A stretch of 49,451 nucleotides of DNA, counting the filler, from Bipalium vagum (Eukaryota), in the NCBI GenBank assembly GCA_037834085.1. It is 3 parts of 3 records of this genome, joined end to end, with 100 filler letters (N's around TTAATTAATTAA, not from the genome) between each part and the next. Parts side by side here need not be neighbours in the genome. Positions count along the whole stretch, not along the records: positions 15,878 to 32,519 come from JBBMKC010100885.1; 2 more parts are not named here. One strand, written 5' to 3'. Below are positions 15,878-32,519 of the stretch, piece after piece (the first letter of the stretch is position 1; every line of letters starts with the position of its first letter). A program made the position numbers and the translations under genes. The notes beneath the pieces are model-generated. The model did no database searches and was not told the origin of the DNA. It was given only the letters and a program-made list of their open reading frames with translations.

Positions 15878-15920
15878 TTAGATACCGTTATTTAGCGATT
15901 TAAAATGTAAATATGAAAAA

Positions 15921-15970
15921 CATTGACTGATGAAGAACTGAAAAATAAAAGTTCGAAACATGTTTATATA
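15921..15970 (+). ncRNA. minimal type I hammerhead ribozyme-like motif (Penelope-type), probably degenerate
   Basis: CTGATGA-A-GAACT(loop)AGTTC-GAAA-CATG-T with a palindromic stem III; stem I pairs poorly. Confidence 0.4.
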
Positions 15971-16094
15971 TATTTGAATAAATTTTAAATTCATTTAATA
16001 AAACACGTATATTCAAAAAATAAATATATATAATAAATAAATATATTAAATAAATGAATATTTTAATTTTACATTTGTAAATTTAATCATATAT

Positions 16095-16425
16095 TCCAAC
16101 TATAAGCTGTAGCTGAATAACAATAACAAGGATCTATTTCATAGTATTTTAAACATGTTTCTCTAAAATTTTCAAAAAAAATCTGCTAAAATTAAAACAT
16201 CTAATTTCTAATAAAAAATATAATCTAAAATTATTAAAATTCTTATCTTCATTACTAAAATAATTACTAAATATAATCATTTCAAGTTATAGTACAATTT
16301 ATTTTATTATCAAAATCATTTCTATTAAAGTCCATCTGTTTTGATAATTATCAACAACTTCTTTATAATAAGAACCTTTTATATATTCATAAGGATAAAA
16401 TTATTTCTTAGGTTTTAATTCTTAA
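16095..16425 (-). pseudogene. Polinton/Maverick (adintovirus)-type protein-primed DNA polymerase B fragment
   Basis: Frameshifted translation FYPYEYI ... LDVLILADFF/ENFRETCLKYYEIDPCYCYSATAYSW matches the pPolB pattern FPYEY...DVLLLADVFENFR..CL..Y.LDP.HY.TAPGLSW. Confidence 0.8.
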
Positions 16426-19400
16426 AATTATAAAATATACATATTACATATTACATTTTACATATAATATAATAATATAAAACATATAATAACATATTTT
16501 ACTTTATATCACGAGGTCTATCACGAAAAATTATTCATTATATTAACTTATTATTTTATTATCATTCTTCCAGAACTCATCTGCTATTATTTCCAGAACT
16601 ACACAAATGCTTCTAGAGTAAGGTTTAATTAATTATTTTATTATTAAAAATATTGTTTTTTAAAAAATTATTATATTCTTTTTAATAATTTTCACATAAA
16701 ACTTTTAATAGCTAAAATTTGTCTTTTTTAAGATAAAGATGATTTGATAACGCTCAGATTTTTTATTTTTGATGATGACTATAAGATTAACTTATAACCG
16801 CAACCTATATGATTAACTATTAGTAATGAATAAAAAATTCTAAAAAATTAAATAACTTTCCATAAATAAATGATGTTGGAGTAAAGTTACTAAATATAGA
16901 AAGTTATATAATATAATAACTTACTTAAAATAGTAACAACTCACGCATAACTATTAATTGGAAGTTTTATAATATAAAACTTACCTAAAATAGCAACCAC
17001 ACACAGATGAATCTATTATTGGAAAGTTAGAATTGAGCAAATAAGAAGCTGCAGAATGTGGAAAACAAGAGTTTATAAATTCTTGTTTCACATATTCAAA
17101 ATGTCCTTAAGAACTTAGAATACGATTTCATATCTATTTTAAAACGCTTTTAAGACGCCGGAAATAATAAAATGTAATGAATTTGTATTAATTCCAAATG
17201 TTTAACCTGTGGAGACTACGAGGACCAGGACCAACAACAGCAAAACCACCAGGTACAGTCCCAACCAATCCCTACAACCGGCAGTCATCGTGAAGGGATT
17301 ACTCCTTATCCTTCATAACATTCGTCCATAACTAACAATTATCCATGATATTTGTGCATGACTCAAATTGTGTATTTGTGAAATTTGAATATTATTTATT
17401 TGTGAAATTTTAATCGTTTTATTCTTTTCGGTTGTGAAAGAAAAATATATGTATATACATTGTAAACCAATTCTGACCAAAGATGAAGTAATAATTAAAA
17501 TAATTAAATAAAAAATTTTTTAAAAAAAAACCAAATAATAATAAATTAAAAATAATAATAAATTGAAAGAAGATCATATAATAAATAAGATATAGTATCA
17601 AATAATAGATTAATATGTGGGAATTATTATTATTAGGATGTAGTTTATATTATTATGTTATATATTTATTTATATTATTATGAGAGAAAAATTTTAAAGT
17701 AACATTAAGTTACTAAAAATAAAAAGTTCAAAAGAAATTTTATAGAAAAATGGTAAAATTGGAAAGAAAGCAGGCAAAGCAAATTAATTAAGAAAAAAGA
17801 CAGTTACTAAAAATAAAAATAAGGAAAAAATAATAGTATAAAAGAAGTTAAAAATTTTAAACAAGAGACAACAAAAAATATTTGTAATATTTGTAAAAAA
17901 AATTGTAAATATATTGATCCTTAGTTTAAAATTGATTTGAAAATTGTCTGGATTTTTAATTGTCAGATGTTAATATTTATTAAATATTGTAAATCTTTTT
18001 TGTATTGAAATAAATCTTTTTGTTGAATTTTATTATTTTAAACATTAATAAATATTTCATAATATTTATTTTGCGGAAAATTTTCATTTATTTTGATGAA
18101 TTCTTTTTCTGATAAATAGTTTAGGTTTATTTGTATGCTTTTTATTTTTATTTTTTTTTTCAGATTTTAATTTTATTATTTTTTGAAAAAATGTCCTAGG
18201 AACATAAGATATGTTTAAAAGAGTTTTATTTTTTGGAAAAAATTAGGAAAAAGGTAAAGAGAAATTTTTTTATTAAAGTCACACAAAGTGTATGATATTT
18301 ATAAACACCTTTTTTGATGAGATTTTTTTTTGTGAAGCACTAGCGAGTAAATAAAAATAGGGGTACACTTTATGTTACTTATTATTTTTTTAATTGAAAT
18401 TAAGCTTCAATCACTGATCTTATTTTCTAAAAATGGTGAATTCACTTCAAACTAAATTATATTTTATTAATTTATATTTTATAAATTAATTATTTTTATT
18501 TTTCTAAATTGTACACCTCTTTGTCTTTGAATCATCCTAATGCTGCCTGATCTATGATTGTAAAATTAAATCTAATTAATTAATAATTTTCCACAACATT
18601 TATTAGTGATTTTTTCATAATTTGGTTTTAAAGATCCAGCAAAGCTATTGTTAAGATCAAACTTGTGATTCTTTGGGTAGCACAATATATATAGAGCTTA
18701 TTTATTAAAATAAAAACTATTTTCCGTTATTTCTAAATATTTTTAAAGTATTTAAATCCAATCCAAATGAAATATTCTTTTAATAAAATTCCATGAAATA
18801 CCTCAAAGTTTTGTTAAACAATAAATACGTACAATCAAACTTTAAAAAGGTTAGTTAAATTTGACTTAACATTTTGAATTCAAAATAAGCCATGAAATTT
18901 CAGTCAAATTTCGCTAAAGCTTTTCAATTTCAACAAAAATGCTTACTGTAAAATAAAGTAAACAGAAAAACAAATATTTAACCACTGACACATCACAATA
19001 TTGTTTCTACTACTGCTCCCAAGCTATTTTTCTACAGGACTGGATTCCTGTGGAATTTATCGGTTCGAATTACTTTTGGTCTTGTACAAAGTATGAATAT
19101 GTAGTTGTCTTTCATAGTATCTAGCCTTGTGTCTTTGAGTTACCTTCATAATTATTATTTTGATTTTATTAATTACAATTAAACCTTTTTGTTTGAACTT
19201 TTGTCATTATTGGAGAACTTTCTTTCTTAGTTTGCTAGTTAAAATATTATATTTGAGTTACACATTTTTCAATGCTAATGGTTTTATCGTTTATGTTTAA
19301 CTTTTGGTCTAGATATTGAGGGCAGCTGAAATTAATTTTTCTCTTGTCTTGTTGATAATAACTAGGTAATGTTGAAGTTTACATTCGTAAATTCTTAATT

Positions 19401-19468
19401 TTAAATTTAAATTCAAATTTTTATTAAATATCCACTAATGTCCTAAACCCCTTTAAAAATTAAAAATG

Positions 19469-20722
19469 CAGTGCAACTTCTATTTTGGACTACAAAATTT
19501 CAAAAGTGGTCCAAAAATAGAAGTTCGTCCAATATTAAAAATTAAGACATAAAAAGGCTATAAAACATGTTTTATATGAACTTATATGGATGTAATAATA
19601 GAAATTTAAAAAACAACAATATGTCCAATAAATAATAATATATTTCAACGTTTTTGAATTAAATAATCCGTAATTAATAATGAATTAAATAATTCCTGAT
19701 TTTGAAAATGTTATACATACTGGTTGACATAATTATTTATACCACGATTAAAAAATGTTAATTAACTGTTTACTTTTATAAAATTGAATATGAAACCTGA
19801 AATATGATAACTTGATGTATTTATTTGTTAAGGATATTCAAATAAGTTAATTATAATTCTTTTTTTATTTAATTTACAATATTTATAATTTATCCTAACA
19901 ATTTAAAGGACATAATTGCTTATACCGTAAGTAGTTTTGATAATTAAATTCAAAAATTATAACTTAAAATATATAGATGTATTCTGAAGAAATTAAGAGA
20001 ACGGCAATTGACTTAAGAAAAAATGACAAGACATATACAGAAATTGGAAAGATTTTAGGATTAAAGAAGTCTGGTATTCAAAATTTAATTAATTATCAAA
20101 AAGTTTGGCACAAAAGGAAACAAGGTCCCAAATTCAAAATAAATAAAAGAAATTCAACAATCTTACGGCGGCACATATCAAAAGAAAACGAAAATGGTAT
20201 TAAGGTGAATGCCAACAACAATCTTAGAAATAATAATTTTACATTCTCCGCAAGAACCGTTTCCAGATGGTTGCAGCGACATGATTTCCATTACCAAAAA
20301 GAAAGCACAACGTATCATATTATTCACTAAACATAAAGCTGACAGAATTTTTAAAGTATCTTCATGGATATCCAAGAATATTGTATGGGAAAATACTGCT
20401 TTTGTTGAAGAAAAGTGGTTCTCCTTAGATGGTATCAATAATTAGTAAAATATTATTGCAATATTATTTTAATGCATGAAAATGAAAATTAGGTTTACAT
20501 ACAGTGCTGGGAAAAAAATTGTATACTGTATACCAAATAATATTTAAATAAATTATTAAATTTTTAAACAAATTATTTAAATTTTTGGACCAAGAATTTT
20601 ATTTTTTATATGAAAATATTTAGAAATATGATAAGTACAAATTATTGGTCCAACATATGGAGTTTGGTCCGATTATAGAAGTGGTCCATTTCAGAAATTG
20701 GTCCAAAATAGAAGTTGCACTG
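19469..20722 (+). mobile_element. TIR element (22-bp CAGTGCAACTTCTATTTTGGAC ends) containing a truncated Tc1-like transposase fragment
   Basis: Perfect TIRs with TA on the right end and subterminal TGGTCC..AGAAGT repeats. Internal ORF 19977-20445 has an HTH and FVEEKWFSLDG, preceded by its own Tc1-like left end at ~19715. Confidence 0.8.
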
Positions 20723-20913
20723 TAATAATAAGTTTAAAACTTTTATTTAATCCTACTTGGAAATTGGAATATTTACTATAGCACAAATATATAAGTAATG
20801 TCTTAAAGGTGCAACCTTTATAACTAATTAATAAACAATTTCGTTGTTGAAAAAAAAGAACAATGAAATAAAAATGAATTAATGATGTTATGAATCAATT
20901 ATTATTATTTTTA

Positions 20914-21730
20914 TAAGTGGTACAAATAAATAATGCGAATTTATTTAAAATAGATTTAGTGAGATTTCGAAATATAATTGTGAATTGAAATATAAATCAA
21001 TTCTTTTGAATAATATCTAATTAATAGGGTAATCATTTAAATTTTGATAATATGTTCATAATTTCAAAATTTTTAGATCTAAATATGTAAATATTTACAC
21101 CAAGCAAAGAACACTTGCGGGAAATTCTCATTCATTACTTCATAATGAACAAAACTGCCGCAGAAAGCTATAGGATATTATGCGATGTTTATGGAAAACA
21201 TGTAGTATTTCAGGACACATGCGAGTGTTGGTTTCACCGCTTCACAAGTAATGATTTCAGTATAAAGGATAAAGAACGCGCAGGCCGTCCTTTCAAATTT
21301 GAAAACTACGATTTACAAAATTTATTAGATGAAGATACCTTTCAGTCACAAAATCAACTTGTTAGGTGTTACTCAGCAAGCAATAAGCGCGCGTTTACAT
21401 GATATGGTCAGATTTTAAAGGAAGGAAAGTTGGTGCCTCATCAATTGAATGAAAGACAACTAGAAAATCGAGAAGTAGTTAGTGACATCCTCTTACAACG
21501 GCACGAAAGAAAGTTTTTTTCCATCGACTATTCTCATTAGATGAAAAGTTGATCTATTTTGAAAATTCCAAACGTACGAAAACATGGGTTAAGCCAGGTC
21601 AACCATCAAAACAAACTGCAAGAGCAGACCGCCTCAGAAATAAAACAATGCTTTGCGTCTGATGGGATCAAATCAGGTGAAAGTGTTAATTCGGAGAGAT
21701 ACCAAAACAAATAGTCCAGCTGAATCTTAT
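20914..21730 (+). mobile_element. mariner, mauritiana (Mos1-like) subfamily, truncated and defective
   Basis: FTPSKEHLREILIHYF..KTAAESYRIL, LVPHQLNERQLENR, DEK.IYFEN and KTMLCV.WDQ closely parallel Mos1 transposase; the ATG at 21085 is followed by a stop. Confidence 0.88.
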
Positions 21731-22217
21731 TATTAAAGTTTTAAAATTATATAAACAAATCAATTACTTTAAGATAGTTCGACTCGAGACTCTATAATCT
21801 ATACGAGTCATTGCGGTCACTCATTAGATATCAAACTCACTCATTGACAAGCGCAATCATTAGCATAAGCCAACATCGTAACAGAAATTACTTTTGAAAA
21901 TATTACGCCTTGAATCAGTTTCTAAGCAAGTCAGTCACATTATCAAACTGAATACACTACGGAAAATTAGTATATTTCGTGAGAAATGTTCACACTTACT
22001 CTATACATCACGAATTATATTGACCAATCTTTCTATCACTTGTTCTGCTATTCAAATCATTCGTCGTTACATACAGGCTGGCCTATTTCAGACAACTCAT
22101 AATAACACCCATATCTGAGATGTTTAGGGCAAAATTCAACGAGATAATCATGGTGAACAATAATAAACTCCAAGTATAAATCTTATATTTAATTTTGATT
22201 TATTATTTTGTAACATA

Positions 22218-23483
22218 TTAAGCTGTAACATAATTTTTCGTGATTTTTACAATATATAAAATGAAGTAACTAAAACTTAGTTTATTTAAGAATAATAATG
22301 AAAATCATTCGATAACATAATTTCAGTCATTATTTCGGACCTTCTCCTATCTTTCCATCAAGTTGTCAAAACCTTTATTTCAGAAATGTTTAGATTTGCT
22401 CTGAAAGAAATTTGTGATTCTTGTTCTGAAAAATAATACATTTCATTTGGTTTGACAGCGAGCGGAAAAGATAAAAATCGCTTGGCCAAGATCCGGAGAA
22501 TACACAGGATGTGAAAGAACCTTCCAATCGAGCTCTTGGAGGGTGGTTTTGGTAATATTTACTGTGTGCTACCTGGCGTTATCATGGAGAAGAACCACTT
22601 TTGCTCGTTTATACTGGTATTTTACTTTAATGATGTCGTTTACTCGACGCAATTGGTTTATCAGTAGGAGCCTGTCAACTGTTTTGTCTCTTGGAACCAT
22701 TTCCCAGTGTATCAGACCATCCCAATTCCACCAAACACCAATCATAATTTTGTTGGATGCAATTCTGGTTTAATTCTGGACGTACCTGTGAAACCAGGAT
22801 CCACTTAATTCTTCCTATAGTTTAAGTTTGTATACAGATACCATTTTTCATCCCCTGTTATGATTTGATGAAGAAAATGCTCTTTGTGGCCGCGTGTTGC
22901 TGGGTGTCTGGCAAGATTTTGAGCAGCAATTTTTAAACGACTTTCTCTTATTTTTTCATTGAGTCGATATGGTACACAAGAACTGATTTTTTGACAATAA
23001 CCATTTGATTTAGGTAGCGGAAGACTGACATTTGGTTGCTGTTCATCTTTTGTGACAATTCCCTGCATGTTTGACGACCGTCCACTTCTACCAGTTTGAT
23101 CAATTGGTTATCATCGAAATTGGATGGAAGACCGGTATGTGGCGTGTCTTGAAGGTCAAATGTAGCATTTTCAAATTTATTGAACCAATATTTTGCAGTT
23201 GTCCAGGCCAAAACATTTTTTCCGTAAACACTGAAAATTTCTGTGACAGCTTGGGCTACTTTGTTACCACGATTAAAATAAAATAATAATAGATGTCTAG
23301 AATGGTGCTTTTTATCAATTTGGTATTTCATCTCAAACTTGTGAATTTTTACAAAAAATTAAGTATCAAATTAATTAAATATATAATGTTTTAATTATTT
23401 TAAAATATTTAAAAAGAATGAATGAAATTTTAAAAATGACAAATTTAATAAAAATCGATTTTAAAATGATGTAACAACGATAA
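22218..23483 (-). mobile_element. mariner (capitata-like), defective
   Basis: ORFs 22948-23331 and 22805-23068 (RHLLLFYFNRG, IITGDEKW) with downstream HDNA and HPVYSPDL motifs; TIRs are degenerate, so the ends are approximate. Confidence 0.85.
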
Positions 23484-24844
23484 ACTAAAAACAAAATTGT
23501 TTACTAAATTATATTTTTACATAAATCAAACAAATTTATTATTATTGCTACAAAATAACTGTCAAAACTCGAGATGTACAGATTGCTAAGAAAAATCAGA
23601 TCACCCTTCGGTATCCTGCTCTCAAGGGCCCTCAGTAAAAATAAGGTTCTCCGTTTTACTAGGCGTAAAGAACACAAAAAAGAAGATATAGGAAATCAGT
23701 AAAAAATAAAAATAATATTTGATCTTAAAGTTTTGGAATAGCTGTTCAATCTTTAGTATTTTTTTAATGTAATTAATTAACTTTTAACTTATAATTCAAA
23801 ATTAAATTATAGTTAAAAGAGTTTATTTATTTTGGACCGGTTCACCTATTAATAGTGTGAATTCAAAGTTATTTATTTTTATTTAGGTAGTAGGATTTTT
23901 AATCAAATCCCATAATGAATAATTTAATAAAACAAAAAATTACTTACTGAAATATTTTACTTTTCTGCTTTAAAATCGTCTGGAATGGTCTTAGAATTGT
24001 CCGATGCTGATTCTCGTATTTGTTCTCTACTTTATACCGAAATTTGACGCTTCTTATATACTAATGAATATGCTGTTTGCTGGTTCTAGTCTGGTTACTT
24101 GCTGGTTTCTGGTAATTTGTTTCTTCTTCTTGAATACTGATAATTAAGACATTCTGTGGGTAGTTGGAATATTTTGCTGATATTTATTTTTCACTTGTTC
24201 AACAACTCGTAAATTTTTGTTTTTTTTATTTTAATTACTAATTATTTATATTATATTATTTTATTTTGGATAATTTTTGATTATTAAATAAAATTAAAAT
24301 TTTATAACCCTAAACATGCTTACTTTGAATATCAGTTCTACTTTTTTGTCTTTTTTGCTAGATTATACATTTTACAAGCAGAACATTCCCGAAAACCGGT
24401 CTAAGAACTTAATTAATTATTTGCAACATATTTTATAAATATTATTATTTAATTAATTTTAATGGAAATATTTTGAAAATAATGTAAATTATAATAATTT
24501 ACTGTTACTATTTCGAAATGTGTAACTTAAGCTCATATTTTCTAACTCCTCACTTTGCTGATAATAAGTGATCTTTAGATCTTAATTACTTCGAAAATCT
24601 ATCCGCTGTTGAATCATAACAATCACAAATAAATTTATCCTATTACCTTGAATCAAAGTAATCACAATATTTTGTATTCCAATTTGTTGTAATAAATCAG
24701 AACTAATCACAATAAACTTGATTTCTCAAATCGCTCACAAAGTCAATCACAAAATTTCAATCACAAAAAAAAATTTAAGTATTAAATTTCAATGTTTAAA
24801 ATTAATTGCTAAAATAAAAAAGAAATTAAGATTAAAACAAAACG

Positions 24845-25270
24845 GCAGGTCTCATTGGAGCAGTCAAGAGGTCCCGGGTCGTCCACAAATCCATTTTCGG
24901 TCGCCTACAGGAATCCGTAACTCGATGGGACCCTTGCATCATCACTGTCTGGAAAATGAAGTAGAATGCATACAAAAGTATAAAAACTTCTAACGAATTT
25001 ACAAAATTAATAATCTTCTAAAGTTCCCATAAAAAAATCAAGTCGTAAAAAAACAAAATCTATCTTTTATTTCGGTGAATTTCTTAAATTAAATCCTAGC
25101 CTTAAATAGATGTAGAGATTGGCAGATAATCGCCAATCGCAACTTTTAGAAGCCTATTTCTTTCGATAGCCTAAAATTCCTAAATTATGTTACAGTTATC
25201 TCGACAACGAGAATTACTACATAAGCTTTTTTATAAATTATTAATTATTATCTCGGTGTGATAAATCTGT
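24845..25270 (-). repeat. unclassified dispersed element, copy 2 (inverted relative to 10744-11240)
   Basis: Shared blocks TTAGGCTA, CGATTGG, TA(T)TAAGGC.AGGATTT, TCGAGTTA, GTGGACGA and GCTCC.ATGAGA. Confidence 0.6.
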
Positions 25271-25696
25271 TCACTAATTTTATTATAGGGAAATGTCAAT
25301 TCCCTTTTAGGATTATTAATCCTAAATCGGTCCCTCCTTCCGAACCCTGAACTAATCTTGCTAATTTAGGTTCGTCATTGTCAAAATTAGATCACAAAAA
25401 AATTTATTGCCTTTTTTCCTTTTTAATTAGCTAAAATTATTATTTAATTATTATTCTTAGTTATTATTATTATTATTCTTATTATGATTATTATTATTAT
25501 TTTGAGCACCCTTTTACAAATTTCATTTGGGACGGGTGGGTGTTTTGGGTAAACCCAACAAATCATTATTTTTATTTTAAGTCTATTGTTAATAATTTAT
25601 TATTATTATTATTGATCCTTAGTGACCGTGTCTTGGTGAACCAAACATTACTTAAAAACTAAAATAATAAATAACAATTTTGTTTAATTATAAATA

Positions 25697-27352
25697 CACT
25701 GCCTTCGGAAAGTATTTGTACATCCTTTAAGTATAACTTTGAACTCTAACAACTCTTACAAAAAAGCAATAAAATTTAAGATTTTTTCAACACATATTTA
25801 TTGATAATTACCAAACATAGTAACATAGAAAAAATTTTAAATAACTAATTAAGTGTCAAACCGAAGCTTCATCTATGTAACCCTGTTTTTCAATGATTAT
25901 CTGGCATAGCCTTGGCATCCTTTCTAATAAATTTCTTAAGATATCTGGTTTAATTTTTACCCATTCCTTCTGGAGTTTCTGCCACAGATCCTTCTGTGTA
26001 TTTGGGCAAGTTTTTCTAACACTTCGGTCAAATTCATCCCATAGTAACTCTGTGGGATTAAGGTCAGGTGATTGAGAGGGCCAGATCATTATTTTTATGA
26101 TTTTTTTTCCATCTTTTTCAAATAATCCTGACATAGTTTGGCTTTATGTTTGGGATCATTGTCCTGTTGAAAAGTAAAATTATTGCTGATAATTCTTAGT
26201 CCAGAAGGAATGGCGTTACTTCATAGTATATTTTTATAGCCTTCTTTGAATAGTTTCCCATCAATTTTGATTAGATCTCCTAATGATGGACCACCAAAAA
26301 AAACCCCAAATCATAACAGATCCTATAACAGATCCTAACAGATCATAACAGATCCTAACAGATCATAACAGATCCTATAGATAGTTATGATTATGCATTG
26401 ATCTGAGAACCTCTCACCAGTAGACCTGCGAGAAATACACACCTTCTTGATCCAAAAACTTCAAACTATGATTTATCCGACCAAAGTACCTGACACCAGT
26501 CTTCGGATGACCAGTTTTGGTGTTCTCTGGCTCACTCTAATCTTATCTTCTTATTTTTATGCCGAAGTAATGGTTTCCTAGTGGCAATTCTTCCAAATAG
26601 ACCAGCCTTTTAAAGCCGGTCTTTTACTGTTGTTATGATAATACATCTTTCTCGGGCATGGTTTATGTGAGAGTCAATTTCTGGTGCCGTTAGACGTTTA
26701 TTACGCTTGCTCGTTATTATAATTCTACAGTCTTCTGTATCAGTAGTTTTTCTTGGTCGTCCAGCTCTTTCATTGTTCTTAATAATGCCGGTATCATTGT
26801 ATTTCTTTATTATAGCGCTAACTGTTGTATACCATAATTTTAAATTTCTGCCAATTTAACGAGCACTGATATTCATTTTATGTTGGGAAATAATCATACA
26901 CCTTTTCTCCAACGAAATCTCATTAGTTTTAACCATACCTTAAATTTTTTTATATATTAAAATTATTAAGCAACATTAAAATTATTTCAAAAAATCTTAC
27001 TTAATTTAAAATTCCAACAAAAAACAAAAATGAATAATTAAAAAATTGGCTTTTTAACTAAGTTATATTAACAGTAATTTAAAAATATTAATTTAACTTT
27101 ACTTGCCTTAATTATATCCGAATAAAATGATAAAGCTTTTAGAAATATTTTTTAGCTAAATTTTATAAAAATCAAAATGTAGAAATTCATATTGTAAAAT
27201 TTATTATCTTTGTGTTTCATCGTTATATATATGTAAGGGTCCTAATAAATTTAAAATTACAATTGGTTTTTAAAGAAAACATTAAGCTATGTTAGAAAAA
27301 TTGATCATTTTGCATTTTAAGAAGGGTTTACAAATACTTTCCAACGGTAGTG
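25697..27352 (-). mobile_element. Tc1 (DD34E) transposon, full length, defective
   Basis: About 31-bp imperfect TIRs with TA flanks; transposase 26936-25856 with WSDKS, GSVMIWG, FQQDNDPKH and WPSQSPDLNPTELLW; contains stops and an internal tandem expansion. Confidence 0.93.
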
Positions 27353-27442
27353 TACATTCAATTGTTTATTAAAAGGTTACCATATTACTTTTTTTAATTT
27401 ATTCTATTATTAGCTGTAAATATTAGATTTCCAGAAAATGAA

Positions 27443-27500
27443 AGGATTTTTTACCGTTCTCGTACCCCCAAATTAGCGTTTGTTTTAATTGTTCAAAATC
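27443..27500 (+). mobile_element. solo terminus of the TIR family at 38538-39996
   Basis: AGGATTTTTTACCGTTCTCGTACCCCCAAA is identical to the left end at 38538. Confidence 0.7.
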
Positions 27501-27899
27501 ATCATTTGTTACTAGTAACAATCAAAATTCAAAAATTATAATTAATATAATATAATAATTATAATATTCCTAATTATATTAAATTAAATACTTAATTAAT
27601 TATTATAGATATTTCTTATTTCTTAAAATTATTTAATAGTTAAAAATAAAAAATTTATTATAGATACATAATACATTGTGGAATATCAATAATGAAGTCT
27701 TCTTCCAGATCCTTCATATATCATAAGACAGTTTCTAAAATTATACAAACTTTCTTAATAAAGTTTTTTGTAATTTTGAAAAAATATATTGATTTAGGAG
27801 TATTATCTGGATTTGTTTCAACACACTGGAACAGTGTCTACGATAAAGTGAAAGATTTAATAATGATATAGTTCGCTGAAAAAGAATTTAGATACTGCA

Positions 27900-28700
27900 A
27901 TTACTGCATTATAACCTATTATTGAATTGTTGAAAATTTAATTGCATATTATCAAAATACGGATCGTGATTCCATGGCAGATATAATTAGAAAGAGACAT
28001 TCCTTGATTAGAAATAATATAGTCGAGTTAATAATGTGGTTAATATATAAACTAGGTGTCTGAAAATTTGAAGGTCACCTATTGTTTATATAAAGTAAAT
28101 TTAATAAATTTGGAAATTTAATTTTGGGCCACATTTCATGATTGTTGATAATAAAAGTAATATTTTTTCAGAAATAATATTCTTATCAGAAAGGAATCTT
28201 AGTTATTCTCAACAGTGAATCTTTATATATCAATAGACAATTAGGAACAAAAGGAAAGCGATCTCATCTTGGAAGCAATGAAGTCACTTTTGACGTTTAG
28301 TTCCAAGTTTTCCATTGAACATTTTTATAATTTAAAATTTTTAAATCATGCGTTATAAATACAAAAGGAAAGATTTTGGCAGATTGAAAATGGAGATTAT
28401 TCTGATATTTTGTTGGTATGCTTAATAAATAAAAGTTTAATTATGCAGTCTTCTTAAATATTAAAAATTATTGTGTAATAAATTGTGCACTACTGTATTC
28501 ATTTGATGTGGCACATTGCGTAATATTTTTTAGTGTGCGGTTACCAAATTTACGAGAAGAAACCCAATTAGAACCCGCTAACCCGTAGCCAGTAAAATAT
28601 AAATCCAACCCATCGGGTCTCATTCCAGTTAATACATTAGTCAATTATTAATATAAAACGACCTATTCTGACACAGACATGTAATAATTCGCTTTTTAAG
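27900..28700 (-). pseudogene. probable decayed tyrosine recombinase (Crypton-like or virus-like)
   Basis: Frameshifted motifs in catalytic order: LTGMRP (28615-28632), WKT (28306-28314), PSNF/FRH (~28056-28075), SAM/NH (~27966-27981). Confidence 0.35.
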
Positions 28701-29458
28701 TTTCATTTGCTATTAAAGATATGAAATTGATTTATGGGCTTACTTTAAGGTAAGAATATCGAAATTTCACTTCAAATGTAAAATATTCAAGTGATAAACT
28801 TTAATAAGTTACTACTTTCAACACTTTGATTAACTTTCATTCAACAGTTGTCAGTAGTATTTCTGAAATTTCTCTTTATAGGCCTTAATGACTTCATGTC
28901 CGTGATTTAATAGTATGACTCATAATTCAAAATTGTTGAATCATAACCATTGAATGTTTCATGCTAAACAATGAAAATTTTTTATCTGATTCAACAAATC
29001 TATAATACATTTATTCATTGAAAATGTCGTGACTAAAACTTCAAAATAACTCCCTAATTTCTATTGAAGTGTCTCAAGATTAACAATAAAATCTCAATTG
29101 TTGTAATGCCACTTTTCATTCCACCTATTTTCATTGTTTTAATAACGAATTTACATTTCAAAGTTAGAAAAATAACTTCATTATCTGTTAAATAATGATT
29201 TTTATAATAAAACTTAAAATTATATAAATCAGTTTTTAAAAAGAAGTTATATTGAAAAATAATTCATCTGAAATAACACTCAAAACCAGACATTTAATAA
29301 TTAATTGTTCCTAAATTTAAATGTTAATCTAAAAAAATCGACTCAACCATGTAGAAATTATGAATACCGGATTTACAAATTATCGACCAAAAAATATGAT
29401 GGTATTAATGTGAACAAATATATTAACTAAATACAAATTTTAAAATTCCTGAAGCCAA

Positions 29459-30130
29459 TTATAAATCTGATTTAGTTCTCTGCTCTGCAGCAGCAGGATC
29501 ATGAATGGGCATTTTTTCGTTAATTAATTTGATAAAATCTTTTTTCTCTGTGCATCCCTTGCACTCCTCTCCCCAGCTCTCCAGGATTTTTTTCAGATCT
29601 TTTACTCTAGCCTTATTAAGATTCATTCCAATAAGATTGATTGGCTTTTCTAAAACATTAGATTTATTAAAAGAACCAAGCAGAAATACTTTTACCGTAT
29701 TTCAAATCGCAAATCTGTGAATCCATTGCTTTGAGCTTTTCACAAACTTTTTCGGCAGGCATTCCCCAACTTAAAGGCTCTGTTAAATGTTTAACGATGT
29801 ATGTAGCCGATGTTTCAAGGCCTCCGATGTAGTAACACTACAAGATAGTTTTAATAAGTTCCAATTAAAAACAATGTTACCAAGCTTTCGTCCTTATCTT
29901 TACTTGTCTTGCACATTTCTTTAAACTTTGCTTCTATTTTTTCTATTTTTGTGCTTTCGTCAGAAGTTAAGCTGTCTCTCAATTTTCTAACAAATTTTAC
30001 GCAAACTAAATATTAAAAGATAATATTAATTTAGTTCAATATCAATAAAAGTACCTTCGCAATTTTGCTCATTAACTGCACCTGATATTGAGTAAACATT
30101 TAATAATAAAATGAGTGATAAAAATTTCAT
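29459..30130 (-). CDS. MANF: mesencephalic astrocyte-derived neurotrophic factor / CDNF / ARMET homolog, 177 aa
   Basis: complement(join(29459-29649,29696-29837,29881-30005,30055-30130)). Signal peptide [67 protein letters not shown]-terminal KSDL. Introns of 43-49 nt, all GT-AG. Confidence 0.96.
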
Positions 30131-31870
30131 TGAAAACGATATAAACATATTTGTGAAAAATAAGTAATTGCTTTGTTGTAATAAAATTATTGGTTAAGGA
30201 ATTTTAAAATATCTCAGTGACGTATAATTGCTTGTTTAAAACTAATGTTCTACCAAAAATAATATCAATAATAAAAAATAAAAAATTTAAATTTTAAATA
30301 ACAGCATTTAGTAAAAATCAAAAATTCTTTTTCTCTATATTTAAGTTATAAATTTCTTTTAAAATTAATTTAAAATTTAAAGCAAGACTGGTACATAAAA
30401 TTTGAAATATTTTTAATAAAAAATTTCAATTTTATACTATAAATAAAAATTTTAATTTGATTTTATGATAAAAATTATTACATAAAGATTATTTTATAAT
30501 AAACAATGCTCAATAATGAAACTTTAATTATTGATGTCTTGTAAATAAAAATATAAATCAACATTTTCATAATTAAAATTAATCTAACAAATTTACGCTT
30601 CACAATGTATAAATGATCTTGACTATTATATCAAATCATTTGAAATTGTATTCCACTTTTGTCAAATACTAACAGTATATTTAGATTTTCGGTTTCCGCT
30701 TATGATAACTTCTAATATCACGAGTTCTTTTTAAGTTCACGACCACAACTGACTCAACTTGTAGTGGCTTAAGGCGAAGCCTGATTTTTCAAATAATTAT
30801 ATATTGTCATTATATTTCTTGTCCATCCATTTTAATGCTAATATACTTATTTTAAATAAATAAATAATCAGGTGTGCAGTACCAAAACCGACCAACCTTA
30901 TTATGGTACTCAAAAAATGATTTTGTAGAGACAGTATTCCGATGACCAACCGATAGATGATAATGTAGTTAGTGACTCTAGATTGCTTCTTTGGTAGGCA
31001 TAGTAGAACTCTCCTTCAATGGTCGCTTTGAAATTGCGTGTTAGGAGAGGAATCTCCTTCAGTGCACGTTTGCTCACCATTAAAGTGAGTTATTAAACTT
31101 AGGATTATTAAAATTGAAAACTTTTCTTACAGTTGATAATTATTAGAACATACATGAAAAACTTAAACCTATTGTTTGTTGATATTTTTATTGTATGTCT
31201 TTAACAGGAAATAGTATATATTCTGAAAACTTGGAAATCAATTTAACTAAGTTAGGGTATTTTATTGGAGAAAAAATTATTTTTAAAAAACAAATCTACA
31301 ATATTAATTGCAAATAAAAATGAATACACAATTAATAATGTTACAAATTTTGGATCAACAAATAATTATAATTTTTTCGGTTGGTATAATATTTATGCAA
31401 ATTATTTTATGTTTGAAGGAAAACCTTTACAGCAAACATCTGTTAAAAGTTATTAAGGAACATATATAATATTTTTACGATATATGATTTTGAAGAAACA
31501 GAGTTCACTTATAAGATATTACTTTGATTATAATTCTAAAGAAAGTGAATTTAGAGAAATTGTTAGTAAGGTTAAAGTTAAAATTCATTCAAGAGATATA
31601 AAAAATTTTTAAATTATATATTTCACCGTTTTTAAAGATGAAGAATTAAAAGAAATATAAATTTTTACTTCATATTTTTATCCTAATATACTTTACAGTA
31701 GTATGTAACATCAGACCTTGAACCTCGACTCTCAAATTCTCCCACAAGGTAAAAAAATCAAAAATACCAAATTACCAAATTACGACATACCAAAGTATGA
31801 CATTATAAAAATACCAAAATACCATAATAACAAAATACTTTTACCTTGTATTTATTTATTTTTATAAAAA

Positions 31871-32519
31871 ATGGATATAAAATGGTATTGTGAAATTTGT
31901 GATAAAAGTATTTCTAAGAAAAATAAATCTCATCATGATGATACAAGAAAACATGAAAAAAATATGAAAAAAATATGAAAAAAATATATGAAGAAAAATA
32001 TGAAGAAACAATGATATCAACGATAACAATGAGAAAACAATGAATAAAAACATCGAAAAAATAAGAAATGTAACGAAGATATTTATAAAAAATATCCAAG
32101 TTTTTTTTCTAAACAAGGTGGAGATTCAATATCTCATAGAGGTGGTAATTGGACAGAGTCCACGACGACTCATAGAGGCGGCGATATTCAATCAGCAATA
32201 ACAAATAATAAATTTCTAAACAAATTTACAACAGAAAAATATACAGGAGAATTAAATCTAAAATCTTTAAAACCTCTTAACAATACAACTCCTGTGTACC
32301 AATTTACTGGATCAGGCTCGAATATTGATAAAAGATTAGAAAAATATAATGAAATTATCAATAATTATAAAGAAACAGATAATTTAAACATTCCTCCAAT
32401 TCCTAAACCAGATTCAATACCAAATAAACAGAGTTGATCAAGCTGCAATGAAACATGATGTAAAATACATATCAAAAGATTTAAAAGATCGTCACGTTGC
32501 AGACATAGAAATGATACAT
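31871..32519 (+). pseudogene. C2H2/matrin-like zinc finger plus parvovirus VP1u-like phospholipase A2 (adintovirus/Polinton PLA2X-like), frameshifted, cut by the gap
   Basis: MDIKWYCEICDKSISKKNKSHHDDTRKHEKN; KQGG/HRGG/HRGG; GELNL; YQFTGSGSNIDKRL; P/INRVDQAAMKHDVKYISKDLKDRHVADIEM. Confidence 0.82.

Follow-up and report, generated by a model that had tools for sequence, protein, structure and literature searches.

The DNA analysed here is a stretch of 49,451 nucleotides from Bipalium vagum (assembly GCA_037834085.1), called the window below. We examined the remnant of a virus-like gene at 31871-32519, at the right end of contig JBBMKC010100885.1 (C100885), which covers positions 15,878-32,519. 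The locus belongs to a family of Polintons, and other copies in the Bipalium vagum genome (sister or own copies) join the phospholipase A2 (PLA2) of this gene to an integrase in a single reading frame. The features of the focal copy and its border, all on the + strand, are as follows.

31109-31690, +: left flank, a fragment of an internal Polinton gene, fibre-like with a concanavalin A/LamG-like head; at least 16 other contigs match
31697-31880 (inner end approximate), +: Polinton terminal inverted repeat beginning AGTAGT, placed by comparison of loci from the same genome
31871, +: ATG, start of the finger-bearing gene
31871-31975, +: gene start and C2H2 (U1/matrin-like) zinc finger, with CxxC..H..H at 31889-31954; zf-U1 E 0.002
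31960-32047, +: K/N-rich low-complexity linker with five stops in the focal copy; its length differs between copies
32111-32185, +: three GG motifs, KQGG (32111-32122), HRGG (32135-32146) and HRGG (32171-32182)
32177-32185, +: predicted protease site GG|D at the third GG motif, conserved ahead of PLA2
32297-32317, +: calcium-binding loop of a parvovirus-type PLA2, YQFTGSG; the loop Gly is invariant in 40/40 homologues
32318-32435, +: loop-to-helix segment with a 16-aa insert relative to most relatives; the frame breaks at its end in the focal copy
32436-32519, +: PLA2 catalytic helices (D..HD..Y, then AD), PF08398 E 0.01, ended by the contig end; DQAAMKHD 32436-32459 (HD 32454-32459), KY 32463-32468, RHVAD 32490-32504

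Each motif named in an earlier note on this sequence was re-located at its position, including the disrupted K/N-rich linker. The finger, the GG motifs and the calcium loop share one frame, interrupted by the five stops at 31976-32047, and the HD helix lies in another frame, the break falling between about 32400 and 32437. Because of these stops and the frame break the focal copy is a pseudogene; it is a dead repeat with no evident function. Its pieces score below the Pfam cut-offs (16.5 of 23.9 bits for PF08398, 18.3 of 22 for zf-U1). The motifs are nevertheless beyond chance: when the own genome was searched with 31000-32519 and 40 of 3038 candidates were scored, at least 24 other contigs matched the gene part at 75-92% DNA identity and at least 16 matched the piece upstream. 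The rest of the element had been thought lost in a gap; position 32519 is instead the end of the contig, followed by a joint between parts of the stretch, and no internal gap. The loop YQFTGSG is present, but since sister copies spell it differently this variant is no trait of the family. Likewise, the insert of about 25 aa proposed before the HD helix holds against parvoviruses (48 aa from loop Gly to catalytic His in a sister copy, 21 in the VP1 of adeno-associated virus, AAV); against most relatives (32 aa) it amounts to 16 aa.

In the sister copies the order is zinc finger, GG|D, PLA2, GxG, integrase, the last being of the rve type and without a chromodomain. The frame is open from the finger to the PLA2 helix in C192837 and C217451, as the earlier note had expected of intact copies, and from PLA2 to the integrase core in C218821, C221394, C121495 and C196498. 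PF08398 and PF00665 lie on a single frame in C218821 and C121495; one such natural frame holds both, at E 5e-5 and E 9e-13, respectively, and sister copies reach the PF08398 cut-off of 23.9. The ten own copies reaching across the junction all keep the frame, and their linker has 30-40 aa. A motif that we take to be pX-like, which gave no Pfam hit, lies in a separate downstream frame of the own copies, and in relatives a pX-like domain sits on a gene of its own (PF05829, E 0.005-0.007). The gene had been likened to PLA2X, a separate Polinton gene defined by its C-terminal pX domain (PMC8502044). An ordinary adintovirus PLA2X gene, in which a C-terminal pX follows PLA2, now seems a very improbable reading. 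In its favour, the PLA2 belongs to the same family, PLA2X is the form described from Polintons, and known Polinton PLA2 genes stand on their own (PMC8502044; Sf Maverick CAP, PMC5803895). However, because the integrase follows PLA2 in frame and pX does not, we read the gene as a PLA2-integrase polyprotein, and the in-frame integrase rules out PLA2X.

The assignment to Polintons follows from the ends and the gene content of the family. Many own-genome matches start at 31697 and read AGTAGT, and (AGT)2 is a common end motif of Maverick terminal inverted repeats (PMC8097293). Among the fetched own-genome loci there are 43 distinct flanks, with at most 18 of 30 letters alike between flanks, and 37 of the 43 ends carry AGTAGT. 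Two contigs (C192837 and C30627) contain both ends, inverted, with repeats of 165-200 nt, and C192837 has a 6-bp target-site duplication, TTTATT. For the focal copy the opposite end is not on contig C100885. Mapping contig by contig placed the PLA2 gene at one end, with the protease gene next and then two genes of fibre-like and membrane type, respectively; penton-like, ATPase and hexon genes lie towards the other end, and polymerase fragments are internal. [quoted passage not shown] A probe for the cysteine protease, itself reaching only PF00770 E 0.02, gave 150 matches among the 150 scored of 782 candidates. The penton gene was assigned by similarity to the genes of relatives and gave no Pfam hit. 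For pPolB, tblastn with a polymerase-sized gene of a relative found fragments downstream of the terminus in L023, L024 and L038; PF03175 was confirmed in the relative L068 and not in own copies. Thus hexon, penton, adenain-type protease and pPolB, which the earlier note proposed to look for near the gene, are present in sister copies, the penton by similarity. An endogenous densovirus or parvovirus VP1 fragment would account for the PLA2, since AAV VP1 provides the best sequence matches of the PLA2 profile in PDB (E 2e-5). This origin is extremely improbable, as the same family has a Polinton terminus, the target-site duplication, integrase, double jelly-roll capsid, A32 ATPase, protease and pPolB; the Polinton context rules out an endogenous densovirus or parvovirus element. 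One adintovirus feature is lacking. The definition of adintoviruses includes a chromodomain-bearing integrase, a PolB whose N-terminus is OTU-like and a hexon that BLASTp links reciprocally to the reference hexons (PMC11071296), and no C-terminal chromodomain was found in the five own copies that reach the integrase end, or by tblastn with five chromodomain probes against 80 own sequences; the integrases of the closest relatives likewise end without one.

Homologues were collected by a protein search, which gave 180 proteins (120 of them listed), and by DNA scans, which gave 90 loci. Both Pfam families were found in 44 of the 120 listed homologues, and both domains in 79 of the 120 with custom profiles that had been built from 40 of the same homologues. 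Aligned fused homologues are 37-58% identical. At this divergence the PLA2 loop Gly and the residues D, H, D, Y and D are invariant in 40/40, as are the two integrase Asp in the same 40, which suggests that both enzymes are maintained. The five PLA2 residues are also kept in 46/46 PLA2 domains. In a model of one homologue (predicted local distance difference test, pLDDT, 82) the integrase part matched a foamy virus intasome protein (E 1e-15), and the model also matched MELD-virus and mavirus integrases. For a PLA2 model (pLDDT 88) rice PLA2 ranked first, weakly, in two structure searches, and no Foldseek match had an E value of 0.001 or lower. The zinc module of the fused homologues is C2H2 in 7/40 and a C4 ribbon in 2/40. 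We also noted that a C4 zinc ribbon (DUF5679, PF18930) replaces the C2H2 finger in many relatives (L070, L141, L146, L088 and others), so two unrelated zinc modules occupy the same place. In IMG/VR a scan with a single protein found nothing and a scan with an alignment yielded matches, of which the best 80 of 430 were kept. The ESM Atlas contains automatically named clusters with both domains; the first matches, at 0.82-0.85, are below 0.9 and serve as a lead only.

The GG motifs had been proposed as sites of a maturation protease, and their placement suits this: GG|D stands ahead of PLA2, GxG behind it, and a protease gene is adjacent. All three GG motifs are present in the focal copy; the idea of three conserved GG sites was rejected, as only the third, GG|D, is conserved in relatives. 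A GG..D ahead of PLA2 is found in 22/40 homologues and a GxG at the PLA2-integrase junction in 33/40. In mavirus the protease cuts at GG|X and GX|G, and the virions contain an rve integrase as well as a predicted hydrolase in cleaved form (PMC6048507). Three protease-integrase(-chromodomain) fusions of the same group (L093:4458-5957, L103:7459-8925 and P0116) have GG or GxG directly before the integrase; PF00770 reaches E 5e-5 in P0116 and only 0.1 in both loci. In these fusions a second virion protein, the protease, would carry the same group of integrases. It is quite unlikely, in our judgement, that the PLA2-integrase fusion is never cut and acts within the cell, for instance at the nuclear envelope or on membranes, with GxG merely structural. 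GxG also ends stand-alone PLA2 frames, movement may be mostly germ-line with many deleted derivatives, and cleavage itself is only inferred. Yet the integrase part has fewer GG and GxG motifs than expected (4 GG and 2 GxG seen against about 16 of each, in sequences that are not independent), the protease-integrase fusions carry the same motifs at the same place, and the motifs equal the mavirus sites.

In many relatives the integrase is not in frame with PLA2. Of the 90 loci, 17 without detected PLA2 and 17 that were broken or partial were dropped, leaving 56 clean loci (L112 was moved by hand to the clean fused class); the longer loci are surrounded by hexon, ATPase, protease and polymerase genes. 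PLA2 and integrase are fused in 27 clean loci, the integrase is in the -1 frame in 23 and in the +1 frame in 4, and in 2 it lies behind a stop. The excess of -1 over +1 is significant (23 versus 4, p 3e-4). The +1 class was rejected as a signal, having only four loci; L143, by eye, resembles a one-base error. Inside the overlap a canonical X_XXY_YYZ heptamer in the phase of PLA2 is present in 19/23 of the -1 loci, with 1.9 expected. The heptamer A_AAA_AAC stands at the junction in this phase in 15/23 (0.2 expected from shuffles); each of the remaining phases has it in far fewer loci, 1 and 2, and so do the fused loci, with only 1 of 27 (Fisher p 5e-6). These 15 loci are 47-90% identical in the integrase, and A_AAA_AAC recurs in 14/21 clusters at 90% identity, 12/17 at 80% and 4/5 at 70%. 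Moreover, in 20 of the 23 split loci no Met precedes the first catalytic Asp of the integrase, whereas all seven IMG/VR integrases without an adjacent PLA2 start with an early Met. A downstream hairpin with z at or below -2.7 was predicted in 7/19 (mean z -1.37 versus +0.16 in control windows), and in seven hand-picked loci a 12-bp stem with a loop of varying length lies 5 nt behind the heptamer. The -1 bias, the in-phase A_AAA_AAC and the lack of Met before the catalytic Asp together suggest that the split relatives likely express PLA2-integrase by programmed -1 ribosomal frameshifting.

Splicing, transcriptional slippage, a non-AUG start or re-initiation could also join the split genes, or the splits could be mutations or assembly errors in A-runs. 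The four +1 loci, the two with a stop and the 17 broken ones attest to noise, and a Met before the first catalytic Asp does occur in 3/23. We regard these routes as unlikely, however, since the heptamer is specific to one of the three phases (15, 1 and 2), all 23 split loci keep the HD and D-D-E motifs and a long integrase frame, and the stem stands 5 nt behind the heptamer in the seven hand-picked loci. Six As followed by C occur, in any phase, in only 1/27 fused linkers, so under-calling of a run of seven As is unlikely as well. A programmed -1 shift would, if true, amount to gag-pol-like control in a DNA virus, and gene calls for split-type integrases would be in error, as they begin past the first catalytic Asp (20/23 split loci). 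As a separate observation, in L127, L130 and L139, on short contigs and outside the count, the first catalytic Asp is likewise not preceded by a Met, and an A6C run stands directly upstream of the integrase frame; PLA2 is off the contig in each.

The frameshift is confined to relatives. For the own family it was rejected, all ten junctions being in frame and free of a slippery heptamer, and this family is a hard-wired, in-frame version. In a quick, unrooted IQ-TREE analysis with 92 integrase rows, from which proteins P0035 and P0050 had dropped out, three own copies fell into a branch (SH-aLRT 100) whose 32 rows are all of the fused form. The protein search, which sees fused forms only, supplied the majority of them; the four DNA-derived rows in the branch are also fused. 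Elsewhere in the tree fused and -1 forms interleave, and the starred branches force at least five changes.

We consider it probable, then, that at this locus the first gene of a Polinton has decayed, that the intact gene encoded one protein of the order finger-GG|D-PLA2-GxG-integrase, which was likely packaged and cut by the protease, and that many relatives likely join the same two enzymes by a -1 frameshift. The finger and the basic N-terminus would bind nucleic acid or the core and so bring the precursor into the capsid. There the clan CE protease would cleave at GG|D and Gx|G, releasing an entry enzyme and a free integrase. By analogy with parvoviruses, PLA2 may aid the particle in crossing the endosomal membrane (PMC8502044, PMC4642659), and the integrase would arrive together with the DNA and then integrate it. 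In the relatives, a -1 shift would give much PLA2 and little PLA2-integrase. Selection for particles is supported by the entry enzyme having been kept intact and tied to the integrase.

Several points weigh against this proposal. The own-family order was pieced together from overlapping frames of different copies, and no fetched own copy is open from the finger to the integrase end; a target-site duplication was found in only one of the two two-ended contigs, C30627 giving no match. The finger is missing from 31/40 homologues, and the fold match of PLA2 is middling (for rice PLA2, Foldseek E 0.2-0.5, VIA Z 6.0, root-mean-square deviation 4.1, 92 aligned). GxG is possibly just the end of the last PLA2 helix and also precedes the stop in split genes. 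As for the frameshift, the 10 own-family junctions offer no heptamer, the 23 split loci form only five clusters at 70% identity, four of the 23 have no canonical heptamer and one of these, L069, resembles a fused gene with an error, 12/19 have no strong hairpin within 60 nt, and covariation over the seven hand-picked sites is weak (term 0.04, 2/12 pairs). The particle, its packaging, the cleavage products, the enzyme activities and the transcript are all deduced from sequence.

In its gene content the family resembles adintovirus and group 2 Polinton elements with PLA2X, having a PF08398 PLA2 beside hexon, penton, ATPase, protease, pPolB and rve integrase. Unlike PLA2X, the own PLA2 carries a finger on its N-terminal side and continues into the integrase, pX is located elsewhere, and the integrase has no chromodomain. 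With mavirus it shares a clan CE protease with GG|X and GX|G sites, which in the own family are predicted, and the mavirus virion holds an rve integrase and a cleaved lipase-like protein; in mavirus, however, integrase and hydrolase are separate genes, the hydrolase has an alpha/beta fold, and the available part of that report describes neither a fusion nor a frameshift (PMC6048507). Single-program predictions place -1 sites in adintovirus penton and hexon-adenain; the proposal of a programmed -1 shift is thus shared but concerns other genes, and the PLA2-integrase junction is unmentioned in the accessible portion of the paper (PMC11071296).

The genes also invite comparison with retroviral Gag-Pol. 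In retroviruses and long terminal repeat retrotransposons the integrase is a C-terminal extension of a virion protein, reached in frame or by a -1 shift at a heptamer followed by a hairpin, and is freed by a protease; A_AAA_AAC is the gag-pro site of mouse mammary tumor virus and human T-cell leukemia virus. Similarly, the integrase here is C-terminal on a proposed virion protein, in frame or at -1, with release by a protease proposed. The element is no retroelement, however. Unlike Gag-Pol, the setting is a DNA virus with a jelly-roll capsid and a cysteine protease, the integrase is attached to an entry enzyme rather than to the capsid precursor, and there is no reverse transcriptase. We lean, if only slightly, towards the broader view that a wide group of Polintons loads its integrase as retroviruses do, at the C-terminal end of a virion polyprotein. 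This would be either PLA2-integrase or protease-integrase, read in frame in some lineages and through a programmed -1 shift at A_AAA_AAC in others, with repeated switches between the two and release by the protease.

The class of element is known; the way in which the Polinton integrase would be expressed here, and probably also packaged, has apparently not been described. Neither a PLA2-integrase fusion nor its frameshift was found in the literature as far as its text was available, and figures, Repbase, GenBank maps and most supplements may annotate such fusions. According to a preprint, no Maverick-Polinton virion has been observed so far (10.64898/2026.06.19.733378). A PLA2-integrase precursor that a protease can cleave offers a concrete answer to how the Polinton integrase would reach incoming DNA.

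Several further observations concern the element and its surroundings. The left-flank gene fragment is located downstream of PLA2-integrase or the protease in seven fetched loci; its LamG identity is a lead only, from an Atlas feature match to LamG clusters at 0.95. Several termini (window 31109-31697; L021, L022 and L029) are bordered by pieces of the same family, which suggests that the focal copy inserted in or beside an older copy, as a nested insertion. L022:810-3367 on C192837 is an internally deleted copy of 2.6 kb; since it has both inverted repeats and a perfect 6-bp duplication, it was probably mobilised in trans after its deletion. Some copies are bordered by transposase fragments that we presume to be mariner- and pogo-like. 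Across the genome, which measures 441 Mb at 26% GC, the at least 150 protease-like matches (782 candidates) indicate a large, mostly decayed Polinton load. Pieces of the family also occur in four public runs labelled as four organisms, in 2280, 77, 32 and 9 contigs, which are not copy numbers; the best of these runs possibly stems from the same source as the window. On the focal contig itself, a short match to the Polinton polymerase-sized gene lies near its start, at about 16093-16225 on the - strand, and a host MANF/ARMET gene in short exons occupies window positions 29459-30193 on the - strand (PF10208, PF20145).
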